Source: Candidatus Moraniibacteriota bacterium (GTDB lineage: Bacteria > Patescibacteriota > Minisyncoccia > Moranbacterales > UBA2206). From it: a DNA stretch of 64,000 nt. The stretch covers positions 72,606 through 136,605 of the forward strand of contig DMWY01000001.1 in assembly GCA_003483065.1 (NCBI GenBank), in the 5' to 3' direction. Position numbers and translations under genes: made by a program. This document shows positions 1,416 to 58,647 of this stretch, in pieces; the first letter of the stretch is position 1; every line of letters starts with the position of its first letter. The notes beneath the pieces are model-generated. The model ran no database searches. It worked only from the letters and a program-made list of their open reading frames with translations, and was not told the origin of the DNA.

Positions 1416-3440
1416 ATGATGAATAAAAAGCAGAAATTTATTATCGATATAGTTCCATTGACCAAAATTCCGATGTCCTCCCATCAGTCTTTTTCCTATT
1501 TGTCAGATGCCAAAATTTCAATCGGAACATTGGTGTCGATTCCCCTTTTCCATAGAAGCGTGGAAGGGATTGTTTTGGGGACGAGGCAGGATTTTGAAAG
1601 ATTAGGTAATATTGAACTAAAAAAAATTGAAAAAATAATCGTTGAAAATTTTCTCTCTGATAGTCAAATAGAATTAGCGAAATTTATTTCCGATTACTAC
1701 ATTTCTCCCTTGGGCGTAGTGATGAAAAATTTTGTCCCGAAAAGAGCTAAAATAAGGAACAAAAAACCTGCCTCATCGGCAGGCAAGCAAAAAGAAATAA
1801 TTTTAACGCCTGAACAGAAAAATGCGATTGCGAAAATTTCACTACAAACTAAAAGCTACAAACTAGAAGCTAACAGCTATCTCCTCTTTGGTCCGGCTGG
1901 ATCGGGGAAAACTGAGGTTTATATAAATTCAATTTTGGAACTGCGAAAACAAAATAAAAATTTCCAATTCCTGATTATCATCCCAGAAAAAACTTTGACT
2001 CCACAGGCTATGGAAAGATATGGTGCATATTTTGAACCGGAAGAAATTGTTGTTCTTTCAAGTAATATTTCCAAAGGACAATTTTATTCTAATTGGAAAA
2101 AAATTCAATCTGGCGAGGCAAAACTTATTCTTGGCACTCGAATGGCGGTTTTTGCACCTTTCAAAAAATTAGGACTAATCGTGATTGATGAAGAGCAAGA
2201 TATGTCTTTCAAACAATGGGACATGAATCCGCGTTATGATGCTCGAACGGTAGCAGAAAAATTAGCCGAGATTCATGAGTGTAAAATTGTTCGCGGTAGT
2301 GCTACGCCAAGTATCGAATCCTATTATCGCGCAATTAACAAAGATTTAAAATTAGTAGAATTGCCGAAATTGCTTTTAGCGGACAGTCCGCTAGAGGGCG
2401 GACTGTCCGCGTCTATAAAAACACCCACTACTTCTATTGTCGATATGAAAAAAGAACGCTGGACGAAGAACTATACTTGCATATCAAGAAAACTAAAAGG
2501 TGAAATTGAATATGCGCTAAAAAATAAACAGCAATCAATTTTGTTCATCAATCGCCAAGGAATGAGCAGTTTTTCAATTTGTGAAGCGTGTAAGGCAGTG
2601 CTCAAATGTCCCAAATGTGAGCGGGCGCTAGTATATGAAAAAGGCGGATTCTACAAATGCAATCATTGTAATTATAAGACGAGTATTTTTCCAAAATGCG
2701 AGAAATGTGGTGGGATAAGTTTCAAAAATGTTGGATTAGGAACGCAAAAAGTAGAAAAAGAAATTTCGAGTTTGTTTCCTTTGGCCAAAATAATTGTGGC
2801 TGACACAGCCTCTTCAAAAGAACTAAATTTTCATGAAAAAATTTATGGCGCTTTTTCCAAAGGTGAGGCGGATATTTTGATTGGAACGCAGATGATTTCC
2901 AAGGGTTGGGATTTGCCTCGTGTGTCATTGGTTGGTATAATAGATGCAGATAATCTTTTGTCATTTCCTGATTTTTCGGCTGAAGAAAAGGCCTTTCAAA
3001 TAATCTCTCAGCTTGCCGGCAGAGTGAATCGCCCTGGTGCACGTTTTCCTGGAGAAGTTGTTATCCAAACATATCAACCGGAAAACAAAATCATCCAACT
3101 GGCATCAGAAAATAATTTTCAAAGTTTTTTTCAAAAGATAATCGAAGAACGAAAAGCTTTGAATTTTCCGCCTTATGGGAAAATTGTGAAATTAGTTTTT
3201 CAGGATTATAATTTTGAAAAAGTGGAAAAAGAAAGTCAAGACACATTTGAGAGTTTTGAAAATATAAAAGGGTTAAAGATTTCCGAACCACATACTCCCC
3301 TGCTCTCAAAAATAAGAGGACGCTGGCGAAAGCAAATGATTGTCAAATTTCCAGATAAAATTCCAATTGAATTAGAAAAAGAAATCAGAAAGCTCAAATC
3401 AGGCTGGGTAATAGATCGAGATCCAATATCTATCATTTGA
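1416..3440 (+). CDS. priA: primosomal protein N' (PriA helicase)
   Basis: Walker A (FGPAGSGKTEVY), DEAD-like VIDEEQD, Cys-rich zinc-binding segment (CEACK...CPKCE...CNHC...CEKC), helicase C-terminal motifs (QLAGRVNR). Confidence 0.9.
   Translation: MMNKKQKFIIDIVPLTKIPMSSHQSFSYLSDAKISIGTLVSIPLFHRSVEGIVLGTRQDFERLGNIELKKIEKIIVENFLSDSQIELAKFISDYYISPLGVVMKNFVPKRAKIRNKKPASSAGKQKEIILTPEQKNAIAKISLQTKSYKLEANSYLLFGPAGSGKTEVYINSILELRKQNKNFQFLIIIPEKTLTPQAMERYGAYFEPEEIVVLSSNISKGQFYSNWKKIQSGEAKLILGTRMAVFAPFKKLGLIVIDEEQDMSFKQWDMNPRYDARTVAEKLAEIHECKIVRGSATPSIESYYRAINKDLKLVELPKLLLADSPLEGGLSASIKTPTTSIVDMKKERWTKNYTCISRKLKGEIEYALKNKQQSILFINRQGMSSFSICEACKAVLKCPKCERALVYEKGGFYKCNHCNYKTSIFPKCEKCGGISFKNVGLGTQKVEKEISSLFPLAKIIVADTASSKELNFHEKIYGAFSKGEADILIGTQMISKGWDLPRVSLVGIIDADNLLSFPDFSAEEKAFQIISQLAGRVNRPGARFPGEVVIQTYQPENKIIQLASENNFQSFFQKIIEERKALNFPPYGKIVKLVFQDYNFEKVEKESQDTFESFENIKGLKISEPHTPLLSKIRGRWRKQMIVKFPDKIPIELEKEIRKLKSGWVIDRDPISII
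2379..2410. repeat. GC-rich perfect palindrome (GCGGACAGTCCGC-tagagg-GCGGACTGTCCGC) embedded in-frame in priA
   Basis: 13-bp arms are exact reverse complements. ~70% GC in a ~34% GC genome. Encodes ...ADSPLEGGLSAS..., an extra loop relative to PriA homologues. Confidence 0.7.
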
Positions 3441-10131: not shown

Positions 10132-11040
10132 ATGGAAACAGTCAAATGTAATGATTTGGTTTGGCATTATTTCAAAGAACCTAATGCAGATGATGTGTTA
10201 AAAATTCAAAAAAAATATAATCTACATCCACTCATCATTGAAGAATTTTCCACGCCGACATTGCGTCCAAAAGCCACACAATATGACAACTGCCTCTTCC
10301 TCTCTATCCATATTCCCCTTTTTGACACTGAGGACAAAACTACTTATCCAGCAGAAATTGACATAGTTCTTTGCGAAAATGCTTTGATTACTTCTCATGA
10401 CCGAGATATTTTTCAACTGACTGATTTTTTCAATGAATTGAAAGACGACAAAGCCAAAAGAGAAATTTATATGAATCAGTCTCCGGGTGCACTATTGCGT
10501 TATGCAATCGAAATGCTTCTCGAAACTTGTTTTCCAAAACTCGATCACATTTCCAAAAAATTAGATTATGTAGAAAAAGAAATTTTTGCTGGTCACGAAA
10601 AGGAAATGGTTTTTGAAATATCGGTAGTCAAAAGAGATATTTTGAATTTTCGTCGTACAATGAAACCGCAACGCTCAGTTTTTGAATCTTTGGCGCAAAA
10701 AGATTTCAAGCTAATTGAACCCGCTCTAAAGCCATACTATCAAGATTTAATTGGAACCAATATTCGCATTTGGAATAATTTAGAAAGTGCTAAAGAAACT
10801 ATTGAATCCTTGGAAGAAACAAATAATTCTCTGCTTTCCAATAAGCTAGATATGACAATGAAAGTGCTCACGATTTTTTCCGCCGTGATGCTTCCAATGA
10901 CAGTTTATTCTAATATTCTTGCCATGAGCGCCGACATTCCTTTTGGCAAAGACCCGCATGCTTTTTGGATTCATCTTGCGATTATGTTTTTTCTCTCCGC
11001 AATGACTATTTCAATTTTTAAGATGAGAAAATGGTTGTAG
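10132..11040 (+). CDS. corA: CorA-family divalent cation transporter with non-canonical pore motif
   Basis: CorA architecture: cytoplasmic domain, two C-terminal TM helices, C-terminal KMRKWL. The canonical YGMNF loop is replaced by VYSNIL. Confidence 0.75.
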   Translation: METVKCNDLVWHYFKEPNADDVLKIQKKYNLHPLIIEEFSTPTLRPKATQYDNCLFLSIHIPLFDTEDKTTYPAEIDIVLCENALITSHDRDIFQLTDFFNELKDDKAKREIYMNQSPGALLRYAIEMLLETCFPKLDHISKKLDYVEKEIFAGHEKEMVFEISVVKRDILNFRRTMKPQRSVFESLAQKDFKLIEPALKPYYQDLIGTNIRIWNNLESAKETIESLEETNNSLLSNKLDMTMKVLTIFSAVMLPMTVYSNILAMSADIPFGKDPHAFWIHLAIMFFLSAMTISIFKMRKWL

Positions 11041-12557: not shown

Positions 12558-12731
12558 ATGACTGATGAATGTATAAAAAAATGTAAGGTGACGGATGTGG
12601 AAAAAAATGCTTGTGCGTGTGATATCCATAGGTCAGCTGAAGACAAAGTGGAGGATTTGAAAGAAGCTATTGCAGCTTTAGGATATAAGGTGGAACAAAC
12701 TCCTGAGGGAGATATAAAAATAAGTGAATAA
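12558..12731 (+). CDS. small Cys-containing protein (57 aa), possible metal-binding (HMA-like C-terminal signature)
   Basis: ATG at 12558, TAA at 12729. MTDECIKKC...NACAC...EAIAALGYKVE. Fills the cysS-dus gap and overlaps the GTG start of dus by 8 nt. Not in the ORF track (<60 aa). Confidence 0.3.
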   Translation: MTDECIKKCKVTDVEKNACACDIHRSAEDKVEDLKEAIAALGYKVEQTPEGDIKISE

Positions 12732-13695
12732 AAATTTTTGGTTAAAATTGAAAAAACCAATCTTGGCTCTGGCGCCGATGGCAGGCATAACGGATAGTGC
12801 GTTCCGTCAGATTTGCCAAAGATATGGAGCGGATGTGGTGTATTCGGAAATGGCGAGCGTGAGCGCGCTTTTTTTCAAGCCACAAAAAACTTTGGAGTTG
12901 GTAAAATTTGATAAAACCGAGCGACCATACGTCGTACAACTTTTTGGCAAGGAGCCAGCACATTTTGCCAAAGCGACTAAAATTATTTCGCAAATAGTGA
13001 AACCGGATGGCATCGACATCAATTTTGGTTGTCCGGCTAAAAAAGTTTTTGGTCATGGTTCAGGTTGCGCGCTAATGATGCAAAAAGAATTGGCACGTGA
13101 AATTATTTCGGCCGTTTGCGAAAATACTAAATTGCCGGTATCGATAAAAATTCGTGCTGGCGTCAAGGATACGACCGCCTTAGAATTTGTCAAAAACACA
13201 GCTGATCTCCCCTACTCGGCTATTATGATTCACGGTCGAACATATGAGGGTGGGTTTTCCGGCCCGCTAAATTTCAAACTTGTTGAAAAAATAAAAAAAA
13301 TGTTTCCTGATAAAATTGTTTTGGCTAATGGTGGGATAAATTCAGCCGAGGATGGTGCGAAAATATTACAAAATTATCCCCTTCTTGATGGTCTTGGAAT
13401 TGCTCGGGGCGCTTGGGGAAGGCCGTGGATATTTGAGGAAATCAAAGATTTATTGAATTGTGTAGAGACGCCCCGACGGGGCGTCTCTACGGGGGCAAAT
13501 TATGATTTCCCACGCATCAAAAAAATCATGCTTCTTCATGCAAAATTAATCCACAAAGACAAGGGTCAACAAGGTCTTTTTGAAATTAGAAAGCATATGA
13601 GCTGGTACGTCAAAGGCTTCCCTGGGGCTTCAGAACTGCGTAGAAAACTAGTTATGGCGAATAGCTTAGAGGAAATAAAGGAAATTCTAAGCTAA
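12724..13695 (+). CDS. dusB: tRNA-dihydrouridine synthase
   Basis: LAPMAGITDSAFR, NFGCP and catalytic Cys region of the Dus TIM barrel. GTG start as listed; the true start may be slightly downstream. Confidence 0.85.
   Translation: MNKNFWLKLKKPILALAPMAGITDSAFRQICQRYGADVVYSEMASVSALFFKPQKTLELVKFDKTERPYVVQLFGKEPAHFAKATKIISQIVKPDGIDINFGCPAKKVFGHGSGCALMMQKELAREIISAVCENTKLPVSIKIRAGVKDTTALEFVKNTADLPYSAIMIHGRTYEGGFSGPLNFKLVEKIKKMFPDKIVLANGGINSAEDGAKILQNYPLLDGLGIARGAWGRPWIFEEIKDLLNCVETPRRGVSTGANYDFPRIKKIMLLHAKLIHKDKGQQGLFEIRKHMSWYVKGFPGASELRRKLVMANSLEEIKEILS
13464..13488. repeat. GC-rich perfect palindrome (AGAGACGCCCCG-a-CGGGGCGTCTCT) embedded in-frame in dus
   Basis: 12-bp arms are exact reverse complements. 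Encodes ...VETPRRGVSTG..., an extra segment relative to Dus homologues. Confidence 0.7.
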
Positions 13696-18981: not shown

Positions 18982-19527
18982 TTAAAATTTATTATCTAAA
19001 TTTTTCAAATTTGGCCATTTGCTGTCGCGCTCAGAAAGAATTGGATTTTCCAGAGGCCAGTTAATTTTCAAATCTGGATCATTCCAAGCGATTCCACCTT
19101 CAAAGTCAGGCTCATAAAAATTGTCCGCTTTATATAGAACCTCCGTATTATTTTCCAGCGTTATAAATCCATGTGCAAAACCACGCGGAACAAAAAGCAT
19201 TTGAAAATTTTCGGCTGATAGCTCGAAGGCTTCCCATTTTCCAAATGTTTCACTGTCACGGCGAAGATCAACGATTACATCTAAAATTTTGCCACTTATA
19301 ACTCTTATGAGTTTGGTTTGCACATATGGTGGAAGTTGAAAATGCAGTCCGCGAAGCGTTCCTTTTTTTTCTGATTTTGAATGATTGTCTTGCACAAATT
19401 CTGCTTCAATCCCCTCTTTCTCAAATTTTTTCTTAGAATAACTTTCCAAGAAAAATCCTCGGTTGTCGCCAAAAACTTGTGGCTTAATTATGCGTGCGTC
19501 TTTGAGGGTGGTTTTTATAAATTCCAT
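18982..19527 (-). CDS. rfbC: dTDP-4-dehydrorhamnose 3,5-epimerase
   Basis: RGLHFQ...GFAHGF cupin motifs of RmlC. Confidence 0.9.
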   Translation of the reverse strand: MEFIKTTLKDARIIKPQVFGDNRGFFLESYSKKKFEKEGIEAEFVQDNHSKSEKKGTLRGLHFQLPPYVQTKLIRVISGKILDVIVDLRRDSETFGKWEAFELSAENFQMLFVPRGFAHGFITLENNTEVLYKADNFYEPDFEGGIAWNDPDLKINWPLENPILSERDSKWPNLKNLDNKF

Positions 19528-19529
19528 AA

Positions 19530-19700
19530 ATTTTCATTTCCCCCTTCTCCCTTAGGGAGAAGGTGCCCAAAGGGCGGATGAGGGAGAAACTAAGATTGTT
19601 TTATTATTTTAAATTTAATTCTTCCCTCTCTGTCGCGAGTACGCGACATCTCTCCCAAAGGGAGAGAGGGAATCTTTTGTTTTTTCTATTCTATCACACC
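19530..19700 (-). promoter_or_regulatory. GC-rich multi-hairpin leader upstream of rfbC-rfbB
   Basis: Hairpins CCTTCTCCC-tta-GGGAGAAGG (19543-19563), GCCC-aaa-GGGC (19565-19577) and TTCCCTCTCT...AGAGAGGGAA (19622-19672, with nested GTCGCG-agta-CGCGAC). A GGGGG run 13 nt before the rfbC ATG lies inside the first hairpin. Confidence 0.35.
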
Positions 19701-19715
19701 CAAAAATTAAATAAA

Positions 19716-19745
19716 GCCCGACCAGAAAATTCTCTGGTCGGGCTT
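19716..19745 (-). terminator. Rho-independent terminator
   Basis: GCCCGACCAGA-aaattc-TCTGGTCGGGC (11-bp stem) followed on the minus strand by a T-rich tract. Confidence 0.5.
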
Positions 19746-20123: not shown

Positions 20124-21509
20124 TTATTTCTCTTTTGATAATTTCCATTCGTTCTTAATGTTAACATCATAACTTTTCCTTTCTCCATTTTTATTAATAA
20201 CTGTTATTTTCCCTGGGAGCTGTGAGACACCAGATTGTTTTTGTATTAATAGATCATAATTATTTATATCCAAATCTTTGAGGGTATAGTTAAATTCTAC
20301 AGTTTTGGTTTGATTGAGTGGTACGGTAAAAAGCGTGCCAAAATATTGTTTGTTAAATTCTTTGTCAAATTTTATTTTTCCTGTGTCATTAGAATTTTCT
20401 AGCCAAGCGTCTTTTGGCGCATAAACTCGTAGATAGGTTTGATAATCTTTAGTCATCCAATCTTGGGCTTTCCCCCTATGAGTATAAGTTATTTTGAGAT
20501 TAGCGGTTGGTTTTTCGCCAGACAAATCGACAACATAATCAAAAGAGCGATCAATATAATAGTCGCTTTTATATGATGCTAGATTAGCATCAATCATCAT
20601 CAGATAATCCCCTTTCCACGTTGAATTTATTTCTCCGGCCCAAAAAGAGTTCTTGGCTTGATTTTCTAAATCTTGATCTTTGAAATATAGTTGAATATTT
20701 TTATTATTCAAATCTTCCAAAATAATTTTAGCCAAATCAAATTTTTGCGAATTATTCAAAGTAAAAACTTTTTCCATTAGTACGTTAGCTAGTTCATTCA
20801 TGATAGTTTTTCGCTCACCCCTTTCAATTCCTTGTTCAGTATAGCCCTTCTCTACTTGATATTCCAAATTTAACACAGCGTTCTCACTGTTAAATGTTGC
20901 TGGGTAATCTGGCAAAGTGACGGGTCCAGTGATTTTCAAAAAAGAATTTAGCACATTGGTGTTAACTGCCACGATGCCATCAAAAGTTTCTTGACCTTGT
21001 CCTAGGCGATAAAAATACTCAGCTTTCTTGGCATTTTCGGAAAAATCTGGCGACCAATTGGAATCTCGCAATTTCCATGAATCTATACGCAAAGTTTCTT
21101 TCATTGGATATGGAGGTTCAATGTTTGATGGAATTCTCCCGTCAAAATTAGACAGGTCGTGTGATTGAAATTCAATTACTTTTCCGTTTTTAATTTTCAA
21201 AATTCCAAAAGCTCCAATAAATCCTCCTCCTGGACGAATCTCCATATTATTTTGAAAAAGAATCAAAAAAGTTTTTTCCATATCATCTTGCGCCAAAAGA
21301 TAATTTGCAAAATAGGCAATAGATTTATATTCTGTTTTTTGTGAAAGCTCAATCGGAAGAAAATTAATAGCCCCAGAGATAATTTTTTCTGGTTGTTTTC
21401 TAACTTCTAGAAAAAAATAAAAACCTACCAAAAATACTATGGCCATTGACCAAAAAATGATCCAGAATTTCAAAGAGTATTGTTTTGACATAGTATTATA
21501 ACTTGCCAC
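20124..21509 (-). CDS. DUF4012-like extracytoplasmic protein (N-terminal TM anchor)
   Basis: RPGGGFIGAFG motif and overall similarity to the larger paralogue 50695-53169 (RATGGFVGSYA). This family is typically linked to cell-envelope polysaccharide loci. Confidence 0.55.
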   Translation of the reverse strand: MASYNTMSKQYSLKFWIIFWSMAIVFLVGFYFFLEVRKQPEKIISGAINFLPIELSQKTEYKSIAYFANYLLAQDDMEKTFLILFQNNMEIRPGGGFIGAFGILKIKNGKVIEFQSHDLSNFDGRIPSNIEPPYPMKETLRIDSWKLRDSNWSPDFSENAKKAEYFYRLGQGQETFDGIVAVNTNVLNSFLKITGPVTLPDYPATFNSENAVLNLEYQVEKGYTEQGIERGERKTIMNELANVLMEKVFTLNNSQKFDLAKIILEDLNNKNIQLYFKDQDLENQAKNSFWAGEINSTWKGDYLMMIDANLASYKSDYYIDRSFDYVVDLSGEKPTANLKITYTHRGKAQDWMTKDYQTYLRVYAPKDAWLENSNDTGKIKFDKEFNKQYFGTLFTVPLNQTKTVEFNYTLKDLDINNYDLLIQKQSGVSQLPGKITVINKNGERKSYDVNIKNEWKLSKEK

Positions 21510-42275: not shown

Positions 42276-44129
42276 CTATTTTTTCAATACTGACAAAAAA
42301 GCTTCTGGCGGGATAGAAACTCGCCCAATATTCTTCATTTTCTTTTTGCCTTTTTTCTGTTTTTCTAAAAGTTTTCTTTTTCTAGTGATATCCCCACCAT
42401 AAAGTCCACTAATCACATCTTTTCGAAAAGCCTTAATAGTTTCTCTGGCAATTATTTTTCCACCAATAGAAGCCTGGATAGCCACTTGAAAATTTTGTCG
42501 AGGGATAACATCTTTGAGTTTTGTCACTACTCTTTTTCCTTCTGAATTAGCCTTTTCTCTTGGCACAATCCGCGAAAAAGCTTCAATTTTTTCTTCCGCT
42601 ACTAAAATGTCCATTTTTACCAAATCATATGAGCGATAATCTTTGACTTCATAATTCATCGAAGCATAGCCCGAAGAAGCACTTTTCAAATCATCATGCA
42701 AATTTGTCACCACATCTGTGAGTGGACAATCAAATTTAATCACCATTCTTTCGCTGTCCAGATATTCAGTGTCTTGATACTGTGCTCGAGTATTGTTCAT
42801 TACTTCCATAATCGGACCTAGATAATTAGAAGGAGAAACAATTTCCAAGCTCACATATGGCTCAAAAACCTCTTCTATTTCAGAAGGATCAGGAAATTCT
42901 GTCGGTGAATAAACTTTGATTCGCCCCTTATCATTTCGCAGTTTTATTTCATAAACAACACTGGGAGTAGTGACGGTTGGATTGATTTGGAATTCTCTTT
43001 GCAAGCGAGATTGAATAATTTCTAAATGCAAAAGTCCCAAAAATCCGCAACGAAAACCACGTCCCAAGGCTAAATTAGATTCTGGTTCAAAAACAAATGA
43101 GGCATCATTGAGCTTGAGTTTGTCGAGTGAATCACGCATCAAATTATAGTCATCACCTTCGACTGGATAGAAACTGGCATAAACCATCGGCACCACCTCC
43201 TTGTACCCAGGTAGTGGAACTACCTGGGTCGCAGACTCACGCAGACTTGACGCTGACCTTCGCTGAATTTTTTCCGCGTTTTTCCGCGTTCCGTCCGCGT
43301 TAGTCCGCGACGTAATCGTATCGCCTACCTTGCATTCCCCGACGCTTTTGAGTCCTGTGGCAATATAGCCAATTTCACCTACGGAAAGTTTTTCTGCTTT
43401 CACAAGTTCTGGCTTGAAATAACCTACTTCAATCACATCACTTTTTTTGTCATTTATCATCATAATAATTTCTTCTTCGGCCCGAATTTCGCCGTCAAAA
43501 ACCCGCACATGCGCCAACACACCCTTATAGGTATCATATTTTGAATCAAAAATAAGTGCCCGCAAAGTTTTTTGAGAATCTCCAATAGGCGCCGGAATTT
43601 TTTCCACAATTATTTCCAAAAGTTTGGCAACGCCCTGTCCGGTCTTACCAGAAACTTCCAAAATTTCTTCTTCTTTGCACCCCAAGATATGCACTATTTC
43701 TTTTTTGACTTTTTCTACGTTTGCATTTGGCAAATCAATTTTGTTGACCACAGGAATAATTTCCAAATTATGCTCAATGGCTTGATAGAGATTAGCCAAG
43801 GTTTGCGCCTGCACACCCTTGGTCGCATCCACCAAAAGCACTGCCCCTTCTACCGCTGCGAGTGACCGCGAAACTTCATACCCAAAATCCACATGTCCTG
43901 GGGTGTCAATTAAGTTGAAAATATACTCCTTATAATTCATGCGCACGGGTTGCATCTTAATGGTAATCCCTCGTTCCCGTTCCAAATCCATCTGATCCAA
44001 AAGTTGCTCTTTCATTTTGCGTTTTTCAATCGTCCCTGTCATTTCCAACATCCGATCAGACAAAGTCGATTTCCCATGGTCAATGTGAGCGATTATGCAA
44101 AAATTTCGAATATTGTTTTTTTCTGACAT
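42276..44129 (-). CDS. lepA: translation elongation factor 4 (LepA)
   Basis: G-domain (AHIDHGKST, DTPGHVDF) and the LepA-specific C-terminal domain. Confidence 0.9.
   Translation of the reverse strand: MSEKNNIRNFCIIAHIDHGKSTLSDRMLEMTGTIEKRKMKEQLLDQMDLERERGITIKMQPVRMNYKEYIFNLIDTPGHVDFGYEVSRSLAAVEGAVLLVDATKGVQAQTLANLYQAIEHNLEIIPVVNKIDLPNANVEKVKKEIVHILGCKEEEILEVSGKTGQGVAKLLEIIVEKIPAPIGDSQKTLRALIFDSKYDTYKGVLAHVRVFDGEIRAEEEIIMMINDKKSDVIEVGYFKPELVKAEKLSVGEIGYIATGLKSVGECKVGDTITSRTNADGTRKNAEKIQRRSASSLRESATQVVPLPGYKEVVPMVYASFYPVEGDDYNLMRDSLDKLKLNDASFVFEPESNLALGRGFRCGFLGLLHLEIIQSRLQREFQINPTVTTPSVVYEIKLRNDKGRIKVYSPTEFPDPSEIEEVFEPYVSLEIVSPSNYLGPIMEVMNNTRAQYQDTEYLDSERMVIKFDCPLTDVVTNLHDDLKSASSGYASMNYEVKDYRSYDLVKMDILVAEEKIEAFSRIVPREKANSEGKRVVTKLKDVIPRQNFQVAIQASIGGKIIARETIKAFRKDVISGLYGGDITRKRKLLEKQKKGKKKMKNIGRVSIPPEAFLSVLKK
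43205..43312. repeat. GC-rich hairpin plus TCCGCGT direct repeats embedded in-frame in lepA
   Basis: ACCCAGGTAG-tggaa-CTACCTGGGT (43205-43229) then four TCCGCG(T) copies (43268-43312). Encodes ~20 extra residues (DGTRKNAEKIQRRSASSLRESATQV) between conserved GDTIT and PLPGYKEV. Confidence 0.65.
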
Positions 44130-58205: not shown

Positions 58206-58296
58206 TTTAATCAAATTTAATCAGTGGTGGAAAAATAATAAACTCACATTAGTATATTCGTATAAAATTCGTAATTGGTAAAGATTTTGAGCATAT

Positions 58297-58647
58297 ATCA
58301 AGGCAAATCTATAAGCCGGATTTTGTCGAGAATGATCATTTATCTAGTCCCGATATTACTATCGGGATCAAGCGGTACTTCTTATTCTTACTAGTGTAGA
58401 ACAAGACACGACCTTGCATCCAGGTAAGGATTTAGCCGTTTCACCCCAATATTACTATTGGATTCGCCCCGCCCTTTATAAATAAAAAGCTGGGTGCTCA
58501 ACCTTTCGGTTTCGCACGTCTCTGCTCGCACCTCTTAGATTGCTCTAGATGGGTGTTACCCACTACCCTTTCCGCCTCTTCGGCGGATAAATGTCCGGAC
58601 TTTCCTCTCTGACTTTACGTCAGGGCGATCATTCAATTTGCCTTGAT
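58297..58647 (-). ncRNA. rnpB: RNase P RNA (bacterial type A)
   Basis: The minus strand reads GAGGAAAGTCCGGAC (P4 5' strand), GGGTAACACCC, AGAGCAA and the 3' P4 strand ACAAAATCCGGCTTATAG. P1 pairs 5' CAAGGCAAAT with 3' ATTTGCCTTG. ~351 nt, ORF-free and GC-enriched. Confidence 0.8.

Follow-up and report, generated by a model that had tools for sequence, protein, structure and literature searches.

A double-foot REP-type hairpin in frame within the dus gene of a Moranbacteria genome

The gene for tRNA-dihydrouridine synthase (dus) of a Candidatus Moraniibacteriota bacterium contains a perfect 29-nucleotide palindrome that lengthens the encoded protein. The stretch of DNA analyzed, called the window here, comprises 64,000 nucleotides of contig DMWY01000001.1 (72,606-136,605), and coordinates are window positions unless they follow the handle of another locus (L245 and the like). 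The palindrome belongs to a dispersed family of hairpins of the form GTAGAGACG-(self-complementary core)-CGTCTCTAC, and it is probably a solo copy of a "double-foot" repetitive extragenic palindromic (REP) sequence, cognate to the REP-associated tyrosine transposases (TnpA_REP, or RAYT) of subclass 2.4, also known as group 4. The hairpin is a described kind of repeat; its host lineage and host gene are new. It represents an ordinary, though tidy, case of a palindromic repeat that lengthens a housekeeping protein.

A 29-nucleotide hairpin in the linker of Dus

The gene, its linker, and the parts of the palindrome are located as follows.

12724..13695, plus strand: dus, tRNA-dihydrouridine synthase, 323 amino acids (Pfam Dus, E = 5e-66), with all family-invariant residues present
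13447..13518, plus strand: expanded inter-domain linker, Dus residues 242-265, DLLNCVETPRRGVSTGANYDFPRI, a hot spot for palindromic inserts in Moranbacteria orthologs
13462..13490, no strand assigned: hairpin of the double-foot REP type, 29 nt, GTAGAGACGCCCCG-a-CGGGGCGTCTCTAC, its feet being GTAG (5') and CTAC (3')
13462..13475, plus strand: left arm, 14 nt, conserved outer stem GTAGAGACG followed by the variable inner stem CCCCG
13476..13476, plus strand: loop, a single unpaired A, the sole position differing from the orthologous copy in L245 (T)
13477..13490, plus strand: right arm, 14 nt, CGGGG followed by CGTCTCTAC

A preliminary description of this DNA had placed a palindrome with 12-bp arms at 13464-13488. 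Those arms are present, but they are only the inner part of a longer palindrome at 13462-13490, whose 14-nt arms are 100% complementary around a 1-nt loop. The GTAG foot occupies 13462-13465 and the CTAC foot 13487-13490, and the two strands of the hairpin read alike, the loop base excepted. The arms have a GC content of 71%, against a window mean of about 36%. The window holds five GC-rich perfect stems of at least 10 nt, compared with a mean of 0.05 in 40 dinucleotide-preserving shuffles, and one of at least 14 nt, compared with none in the same shuffles; the dus palindrome is far beyond chance. The 29-mer has a folding energy of -15 kcal/mol as single-stranded DNA (z = -6.3) and, as RNA in its context, of -29 kcal/mol (z = -4.1).

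Several other identities were considered for the palindrome. An intrinsic terminator was rejected, since the hairpin is followed by GGGGGCAAATTATG and not by a T/U tract, and a terminator scan was silent there. With a length of 29 nt and a 1-nt loop, the palindrome lacks the build of a miniature inverted-repeat transposable element (70 to 300 bp, with 15- to 30-bp terminal inverted repeats around a core and a target-site duplication), and no direct repeat is found in its flanks (tgt/ggg). A scan of the window against Rfam at gathering thresholds returned RNase P RNA only and no match at the dus palindrome. The arm sequence contains a BsmBI site, and the inverted CGTCTC sites are regarded as a coincidence; a literature search with the arm sequence retrieved cloning oligonucleotides only.

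The palindrome is in frame and is read as V-E-T-P-R-R-G-V-S-T, residues 247-256 of Dus. The whole protein is identical to that of a Candidatus Moranbacteria metagenome-assembled genome (MAG). MAG assemblies can hold chimeric inverted joins, but the chance that the palindrome is an assembly or amplification artifact is negligible, given that the identical Dus protein is found in independent NCBI, JGI, and ENA assemblies (P0001-P0003), that the same hairpin stands at the same site in L245, which is a different species, and that the reading frame is kept.

Close orthologs, taken as the best 120 Dus homologs (67 to 100% identical), bear out the proposal that an in-frame insert lies just past the GRPWIFEEI helix. 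These homologs range from 292 to 452 amino acids, and much of the spread in length sits at the palindrome site. The segment from EEIK to KKIM has 24 amino acids in the window Dus, 8 more than the 16 found in 30 of the 120. It is at most 17 amino acids long in 33 of the 120, from which the insert is absent, and 18 to 46 amino acids long in the remaining 87, where the site is filled by sequences of at least nine unrelated classes. Opposite the insert, the structures of the Thermotoga maritima enzyme (1VHN) and of Escherichia coli DusB (6EI9) have gaps of 8 and 7 residues, respectively, in good agreement with the earlier estimate of about eight added residues. The insert peptide is absent from distant Dus orthologs (34 to 51% identity), where its presence, according to the preliminary description, would have spoken against an insertion.

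In the AlphaFold model of Dus (mean predicted local distance difference test [pLDDT] score of 87.5), residues 247-261 are coil, and the pLDDT falls below 50 at residues 250-257. The last TIM-barrel helix covers residues 236-246 and the first one of the C-terminal domain residues 262-295, and the insert falls between the two. By this model, it occupies a predicted disordered linker that leads from the TIM barrel to the C-terminal helical domain. The DNA of filled dus genes was read for seven species representatives, and hairpins were found in most of the inserts, some of them nested (L246, L249). An AT-rich imperfect palindromic element of about 70 nt, with the peptide IHPVKYFSITKNNFAEQNLLNRV, adjoins the REP site in the dus linker of several species (L245, ~10839-10912; L247, ~10851-10924; L249, ~10808-10900, the last with an extra nested insert). 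The tryptic peptide GVSTGANYDFPR would, if found, be a marker that the dus insert is translated.

Dispersed copies and the association with subclass 2.4 transposases

Copies of the arms in other places, a matter raised in the preliminary description, are not found in the window and number in the hundreds in public collections. A scan of viral contigs with the pattern GTAGAGACG-N7-17-CGTCTCTAC gave at least 120 matching loci with differing, mostly self-complementary cores, including CGATTAATCG (18 times) and CAAAATCTTG (15 times) among the matches listed, along with others. Metagenomes were scanned with the window's own core, as GAGACGCCCCG-N1-5-CGGGGCGTCTC, which yielded at least 128 copies in at least 120 contigs with GC contents of 32 to 73% and unrelated flanks. 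Among the 128 copies listed, 79 had the GTA...TAC ends, which the pattern did not demand, and 122 had a loop of one base (C in 51, G in 50, T in 11, and A in 10). Because the ends are shared and the flanks unrelated, the 29-mer is a discrete unit with defined ends that occurs in widely different organisms.

The surroundings of the copies were also compared. Pairing continued past the feet in just 14 of the 79 full copies, for 3 nt or more in 5 of them, and in the other 65 there was none; the flanks were not conserved. Insertion into pre-existing palindromes was rejected on this evidence. A pyrimidine stood directly 5' of GTAG, on either strand, in 105 of 158 flanks, a weak preference that is consistent with a nearby cleavage site and is no proof of one. 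The metagenome copies included 24 genic candidates, of which 17 read ETPRRGVS and 6 read RDAPxGRL, and the exact 29-mer was in frame in UvrB, an NAD-dependent DNA ligase, an RsmI-like methylase, and KsgA, in low-GC contigs. Family hairpins lie directly 3' of the capsid and protease genes of a phage contig, L008. The two hairpins are 1.86 kb apart, and the possibility that they bound an autonomous element was rejected, as the DNA encodes capsid, protease, and portal proteins.

The dispersal of the family bears on whether the dus hairpin could have arisen in place by template switching, through inverted duplication or the correction of a quasi-palindrome, with no mobile element involved. In favor of such an origin, inverted duplications of local sequence do seem to arise in these genomes: the right arm of a palindrome in lepA encodes the conserved sequence PLPGY, an 11-nt perfect stem (CAAGACCATCC/GGATGGTCTTG) lies over the LDGL codons in the dus genes of L245, L248, and L249, and a compensated swap of the inner stem in L247, described below, could be a hairpin-templated correction. 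However, identical 29-mers with identical ends occur within RAYT genes and in no fewer than 120 unrelated contigs. Conserved Dus codons match neither arm, and the empty orthologs lack the unit entirely. Template switching is a very unlikely source of the hairpin, and a local event of this kind is excluded for the dus element because identical copies are dispersed.

Several long open reading frames (ORFs) that span the hairpin in metagenome contigs resemble HUH-tyrosine transposases. In tblastn searches with three of these ORFs as queries, a RAYT-like gene was found at the hairpin in 12 of the 120 listed contigs (651 kb), and none was found in 1.06 Mb of viral loci. Matches to the NCBIfam model "REP-associated tyrosine transposase" had E values of 4e-17 to 3e-10, with scores below the curated cutoff because the insert splits the match, and matches to Pfam Y1_Tnp were weak. 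The motifs NH[IFV]H, WQ, and YIxNNP of the RAYT-like proteins match those of subclass 2.4. The hairpin lies within the RAYT gene, in frame and just past the HUH motif, in L205, L190 (twice), L228, L237, L179, L215, and L147. Flanking copies are seen in L139 (on both sides of the gene), L137, L215, and L147, and L137 has three hairpins with three different cores.

The association extends to the transposase homologs at large. Most of the best-scoring 120 of 4560 homologs have the hairpin peptide at the same loop, as VETPRRGVST, VETFRRNVST, VETSRRDVST, or VETTRRVVST. The residue pairs P-G, F-N, S-D, and T-V covary in these peptides and mirror complementary inner stems; one homolog, of a 28-nt type, reads VETHCNASLQ. 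The source names include "REP element-mobilizing transposase RayT," and the named taxa include Cyanobacteria, Chloroflexota, Binatia, Thermodesulfobacteriota, and Saganbacteria, with Patescibacteria recovered in a second search. In L266, a Patescibacteria MAG from another lineage, the hairpin GTAGAGACGCCCCA-a-TGGGGCGTCTCTAC lies inside a RAYT 2.4 gene, and 7 kb from that gene is an intergenic family copy. In RAYT 2.4 genes, tandem partial copies of an arm often stand beside the internal hairpin, for example, CAAGGGCGTCTCTAC twice or VETPRDVGT three times (L266, 10289-10360; L215, ~250-390; P0126), an indication of slippage at the hairpin or of partial insertion there more than once.

TnpA_REP subclass 2.4, the group 4 of Bertels, is characterized by NH[IFV]H, WQ, and YIxNNP and a median length of 194 amino acids, and its members occur in Cyanobacteria and Bacteroidetes and in scattered phyla (Quentin et al. 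2018, BMC Genomics 19:475). Its REPs include double-foot families with 5' GT[AG]G and 3' C[TC]AC, and in-frame REPs inside tnpA_REP 2.4 genes have been described (Quentin et al. 2018). The dus hairpin has the 5' GTAG and 3' CTAC of a double-foot REP, and its 29 nt and 14-bp perfect stem agree with the size and structure of REPs, which are GC-rich stem-loops of 20 to 40 nt. In other genomes, the same sequence family flanks or lies within tnpA_REP, the arrangement known as a REPtron. REPs are defined as extragenic, and the dus hairpin is inside an ORF; the literature accepts intragenic REPs. The feet, the long perfect hairpin, and the patchy distribution across phyla are common to the dus hairpin family and the published double-foot REPs, as is the occurrence of an identical hairpin beside tnpA_REP and in frame within it, between the HUH and Tyr motifs. 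The dus case differs from those published in being a solo copy in a housekeeping gene, in Patescibacteria (Moranbacteria), with no tnpA_REP visible in the 64-kb window. What had been handled as an unclassified oddity belongs to the described double-foot REP class, subclass 2.4.

Orthologous copies and competing explanations in Moranbacteria

The Dus of L245 shows 82% protein identity to that of the window, and its gene carries the same 29-mer at the same site, with the change of the loop A to T as the one difference. At this site L247 has GCAGAGACGAGGCA-c-TGCCTCGTCTCTAC, in which the outer stem AGAGACG/CGTCTCT is retained and 4 of the 5 inner pairs are altered on both arms, with complete complementarity. 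This inner-stem variant (AGGCA) was not found in viral contigs. In L124, GTAGAGACG alone remains, the next 27 nt are gone, and the frame is intact; this copy is a decayed remnant of a partly deleted element. The flanks TTATTG...TG and GCAAA..TAYGATTT are common to the orthologous copies, and the insertion is therefore older than the split of the window genome, L245, L247, and L124.

Such persistence might mean that the hairpin is selected in dus as an mRNA or DNA structure, its REP origin being history only. Possible roles would be to pause translation at the domain boundary and so aid folding of the TIM barrel, to affect mRNA stability, or to bind a protein. Pairing is indeed kept between orthologs: L245 has a change in the loop only, and L247 has both members of four inner pairs altered. 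With -29 kcal/mol, the hairpin is strong as RNA, its position is exactly between two domains, and the six family copies detected over 240 kb of Moranbacteria DNA are all within dus. We nevertheless regard selection for the structure as unlikely. The 33 close orthologs without an insert and the unrelated classes in the others argue against it, as does L124, which lost two-thirds of the hairpin and has an intact ORF. Family copies are also found at two dus loops away from domain boundaries, and domain boundaries are in any case the places that best tolerate insertions. The window and L245 copies agree at 28 of 29 positions, which is statistically unexceptional, since overall identity between the two genes is 86% and 11% of 29-nt windows match at least as well.

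The copies at the two further dus loops follow IKIRAG in L250 and KATKIIS in L252, with clean presence/absence alignments, and represent independent insertions into dus.

L250 3730-3757: double-foot REP GTAGAGACGCGATTAATCGCGTCTCTAC, in frame in another dus loop
L252 10274-10301: double-foot REP GTAGAGACGCATCGCGATGCGTCTCTAC, in frame in another dus loop

A different palindrome, with 16-nt arms, occupies the first of these additional loops in L245 and L251, and L251 has another at the second loop. The window and L245-L255, with a combined 240,659 bases, contain six GTAGAGACG...CGTCTCTAC hairpins, all within dus, which accounts for 5% of this DNA; the six are distributed over three dus sites and have five different inner stems. 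None of the 120 listed metagenome contigs with the hairpin contains a dus gene. The restriction of six of six copies to dus, the three loops, the five inner stems, and the absence of a nearby RAYT could indicate that the family in Moranbacteria is tied to dus and not randomly scattered, a proposition that we find improbable. If it were true genome-wide, it would imply gene-specific homing or local re-seeding, or else a functional link between hairpin and Dus, such as recognition by Dus, an RNA-binding enzyme, of a hairpin within its own message. A further implication would be that REPs can persist and diversify in coding sequence without a resident transposase.

A number of observations weigh against a REP mobilized by a subclass 2.4 RAYT. 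By tblastn, neither the 64-kb window nor related Moranbacteria loci totaling 177 kb (L245-L257) yielded a RAYT-like gene, and with none in the window, mobilization by a RAYT is something that we infer. REPs are repeated many times in their host genomes, and the 64-kb window holds only one family copy. The RAYT 2.4 loci L263 and L264 have no flanking copies within 10 kb on either side, and RAYT 2.4 genes could be a favored target of the hairpin rather than its mobilizer. In vitro work on TnpA_REP proteins covers groups 2 and 3 alone, which use GTAG and the hairpin to bind single-stranded REPs in folded form, cut them, and join them again. At the linker and at sites A and B, divergence of the flanks leaves no target-site duplication or exact insertion boundary that could be defined. 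The length of the element, 29 nt, is not a multiple of 3, yet the net gain is 24 nt. Lastly, the 28/29 identity with L245 is not exceptional and is not, taken alone, decisive for constraint.

Some of these facts would suit an arrival by recombination, as a patch of foreign DNA or by gene conversion from another REP copy, with no transposase in the lineage and RAYT 2.4 genes as a mere favored landing site. The lack of a RAYT in the window and related loci and the bare RAYT loci L263 and L264 fit this idea, different inner-stem variants occupy the same site in different species, and the phage contigs with family hairpins are possible vectors. However, the arms offer just 9 to 14 nt of homology, and the near-universal, position-fixed presence of the hairpin in RAYT 2.4 genes, together with the flanking hairpins, favors a specific relation of enzyme and substrate. 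We judge recombination to be quite unlikely.

As a double-foot REP, the hairpin would have moved as folded single-stranded DNA through a RAYT that recognizes foot and stem, most likely at replication forks. In this lineage, with its compact genomes, a copy would survive only where it keeps the frame and falls in a surface loop of a protein; stop codons are absent from two of the element's three reading frames. The dus copy would be translated, as about 10 extra residues, within the disordered linker and is probably a tolerated passenger, with added residues that are presumably neutral. The insertion would have preceded the divergence of the window genome, L245, L247, and L124, and pairing would have been kept since then. 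Later changes would comprise a loop base in L245, the fully complementary inner-stem swap in L247, and the partial deletion in L124.

Known systems, other palindromes, and meaning

Intragenic in-frame REPs of the GTAG/CGTC type have been described in uvrABCD, recBCD, polA, ligase, and RNA helicase genes, as well as in those for aminoacyl-tRNA synthetases and tRNA pseudouridine synthases, and they were argued to be tolerated in linkers and loops (Di Nocera et al. 2013, BMC Genomics 14:522). REPs inserted into other palindromes were also observed; as far as it was searched, that survey lists neither Patescibacteria nor dus among the hosts (Di Nocera et al. 2013). Those repeats and the dus hairpin alike are short hairpins wholly within ORFs, in frame, that encode at least 7 residues, and repair and RNA-modification genes are favored as hosts. 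They differ in that GTAG is an unpaired tail at one end in the families of 2013 and is paired with CTAC in the dus hairpin.

The Rickettsia palindromic elements (RPEs) resemble the dus element as palindromic repeats that stand in frame in a small AT-rich genome and leave the ORF intact. Ogata et al. reportedly found, in 2000, that such elements lie in frame in functional genes, with the inserted peptides on protein surfaces. RPE-1 is about 100-150 bp, and RPE-4 and RPE-6 are CGTC tagged; RPEs are known from Rickettsia alone and are not known to have an associated transposase. The dus element was rejected as an RPE, being 29 nt long with GTAG/CTAC ends, CGTC only within the stem, and an unrelated sequence. 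The small dispersed repeats SDR4-6 of Nostocaceae are said, following Elhai et al. in 2008, to be hairpin-forming mobile repeats of 21-27 nt that show nesting and precise insertion. SDRs are reported from Nostocaceae alone, and SDR5 is characterized by a consensus sequence and by insertion within HIP1 (GCG|ATCGC). GC-rich palindromic clusters of yeast and fungal mitochondria also occur in AT-rich compact genomes, sometimes in coding regions. Their sequences and hosts are unrelated to those of the dus hairpin, and some are bypassed by the ribosome, whereas the dus hairpin is simply in frame.

The preliminary description had likened the dus palindrome to inserts in priA and lepA. This likeness did not hold, as the sequences are unrelated and neither insert has GTAG/CTAC feet. 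The priA palindrome, GCGGACAGTCCGC-tagagg-GCGGACTGTCCGC, is GC rich and in frame at 2379-2410 (ORF 1416..3440, plus strand); each of its arms is itself a 13-nt palindrome, giving two small tandem hairpins. The lepA palindrome, ACCCAGGTAGT-gga-ACTACCTGGGT, is in frame at 43205-43229 (ORF 42276..44129, minus strand). Its right arm is the conserved EF4 motif PLPGY of the host, its left arm is in an insertion of about 20 amino acids relative to solved EF4 structures, and the palindrome has the appearance of host sequence duplicated locally in inverted orientation rather than of an inserted REP.

Related genomes also contain palindromes in or near dus that are separate from the REP family. A perfect stem, (C)AAGACCATCC/GGATGGTCTT(G), is found in dus at 10691-10718 in L245 and 10712-10739 in L249 (11 nt) and at 3971-3996 in L248 (10 nt). 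It spans the conserved QDHPLLDGLG, which reads QNYPLLDGLG in the window; the codons upstream appear to have been converted to the complement of the LDGL codons, and this points to templated formation of palindromes in the genomes concerned. A further family of palindromes (GGAGGTTCGACCTCC... / AGGTTCGACCTTTGGCGCGCCAAAGG...) stands in frame in long ORFs of 268-493 amino acids just upstream of dus (L246, 9369-9414; L249, 9405-9439; L251, 9306-9339), with peptides such as GGSTSIMEVEPP, and it is also found outside the long ORFs in L250 (9460) and L251 (15411).

Elsewhere in the window, three GC-rich perfect hairpins are clustered at 19543-19563, 19649-19667, and 19714-19745, in the intergenic region between ORFs 18982..19527 and 20124..21509 (both on the minus strand). 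A hairpin related to this cluster, CACCTTCTCCC-ttc-GGGAGAAGGTG, is found at 16836-16860 in L245. A bacterial class A RNase P RNA lies at 58296-58644 on the minus strand (Rfam RF00010, 127.9 bits), and a tRNA scan found no tRNA genes in the whole 64-kb window.

The dus hairpin extends the documented in-frame colonization of genes by REPs to a lineage of the candidate phyla radiation with a very compact genome. It offers an explanation for a recurrent annotation puzzle, that close orthologs of housekeeping enzymes from Patescibacteria vary in length by 5-45 residues at fixed loops. Peptides like VETPRRGVST that recur in unrelated proteins would, accordingly, be translated REP-type palindromes and no protein motifs. 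Inserts of this kind can be misleading in alignments, gene trees, and searches for homologs, and could be used as strain markers. The 29-mer also provides a concrete and cheap substrate with which subclass 2.4 of the HUH enzymes could be assayed. The presence of one 29-nt hairpin across organisms of 32-73% GC is consistent with horizontal spread of the RAYT 2.4 system.

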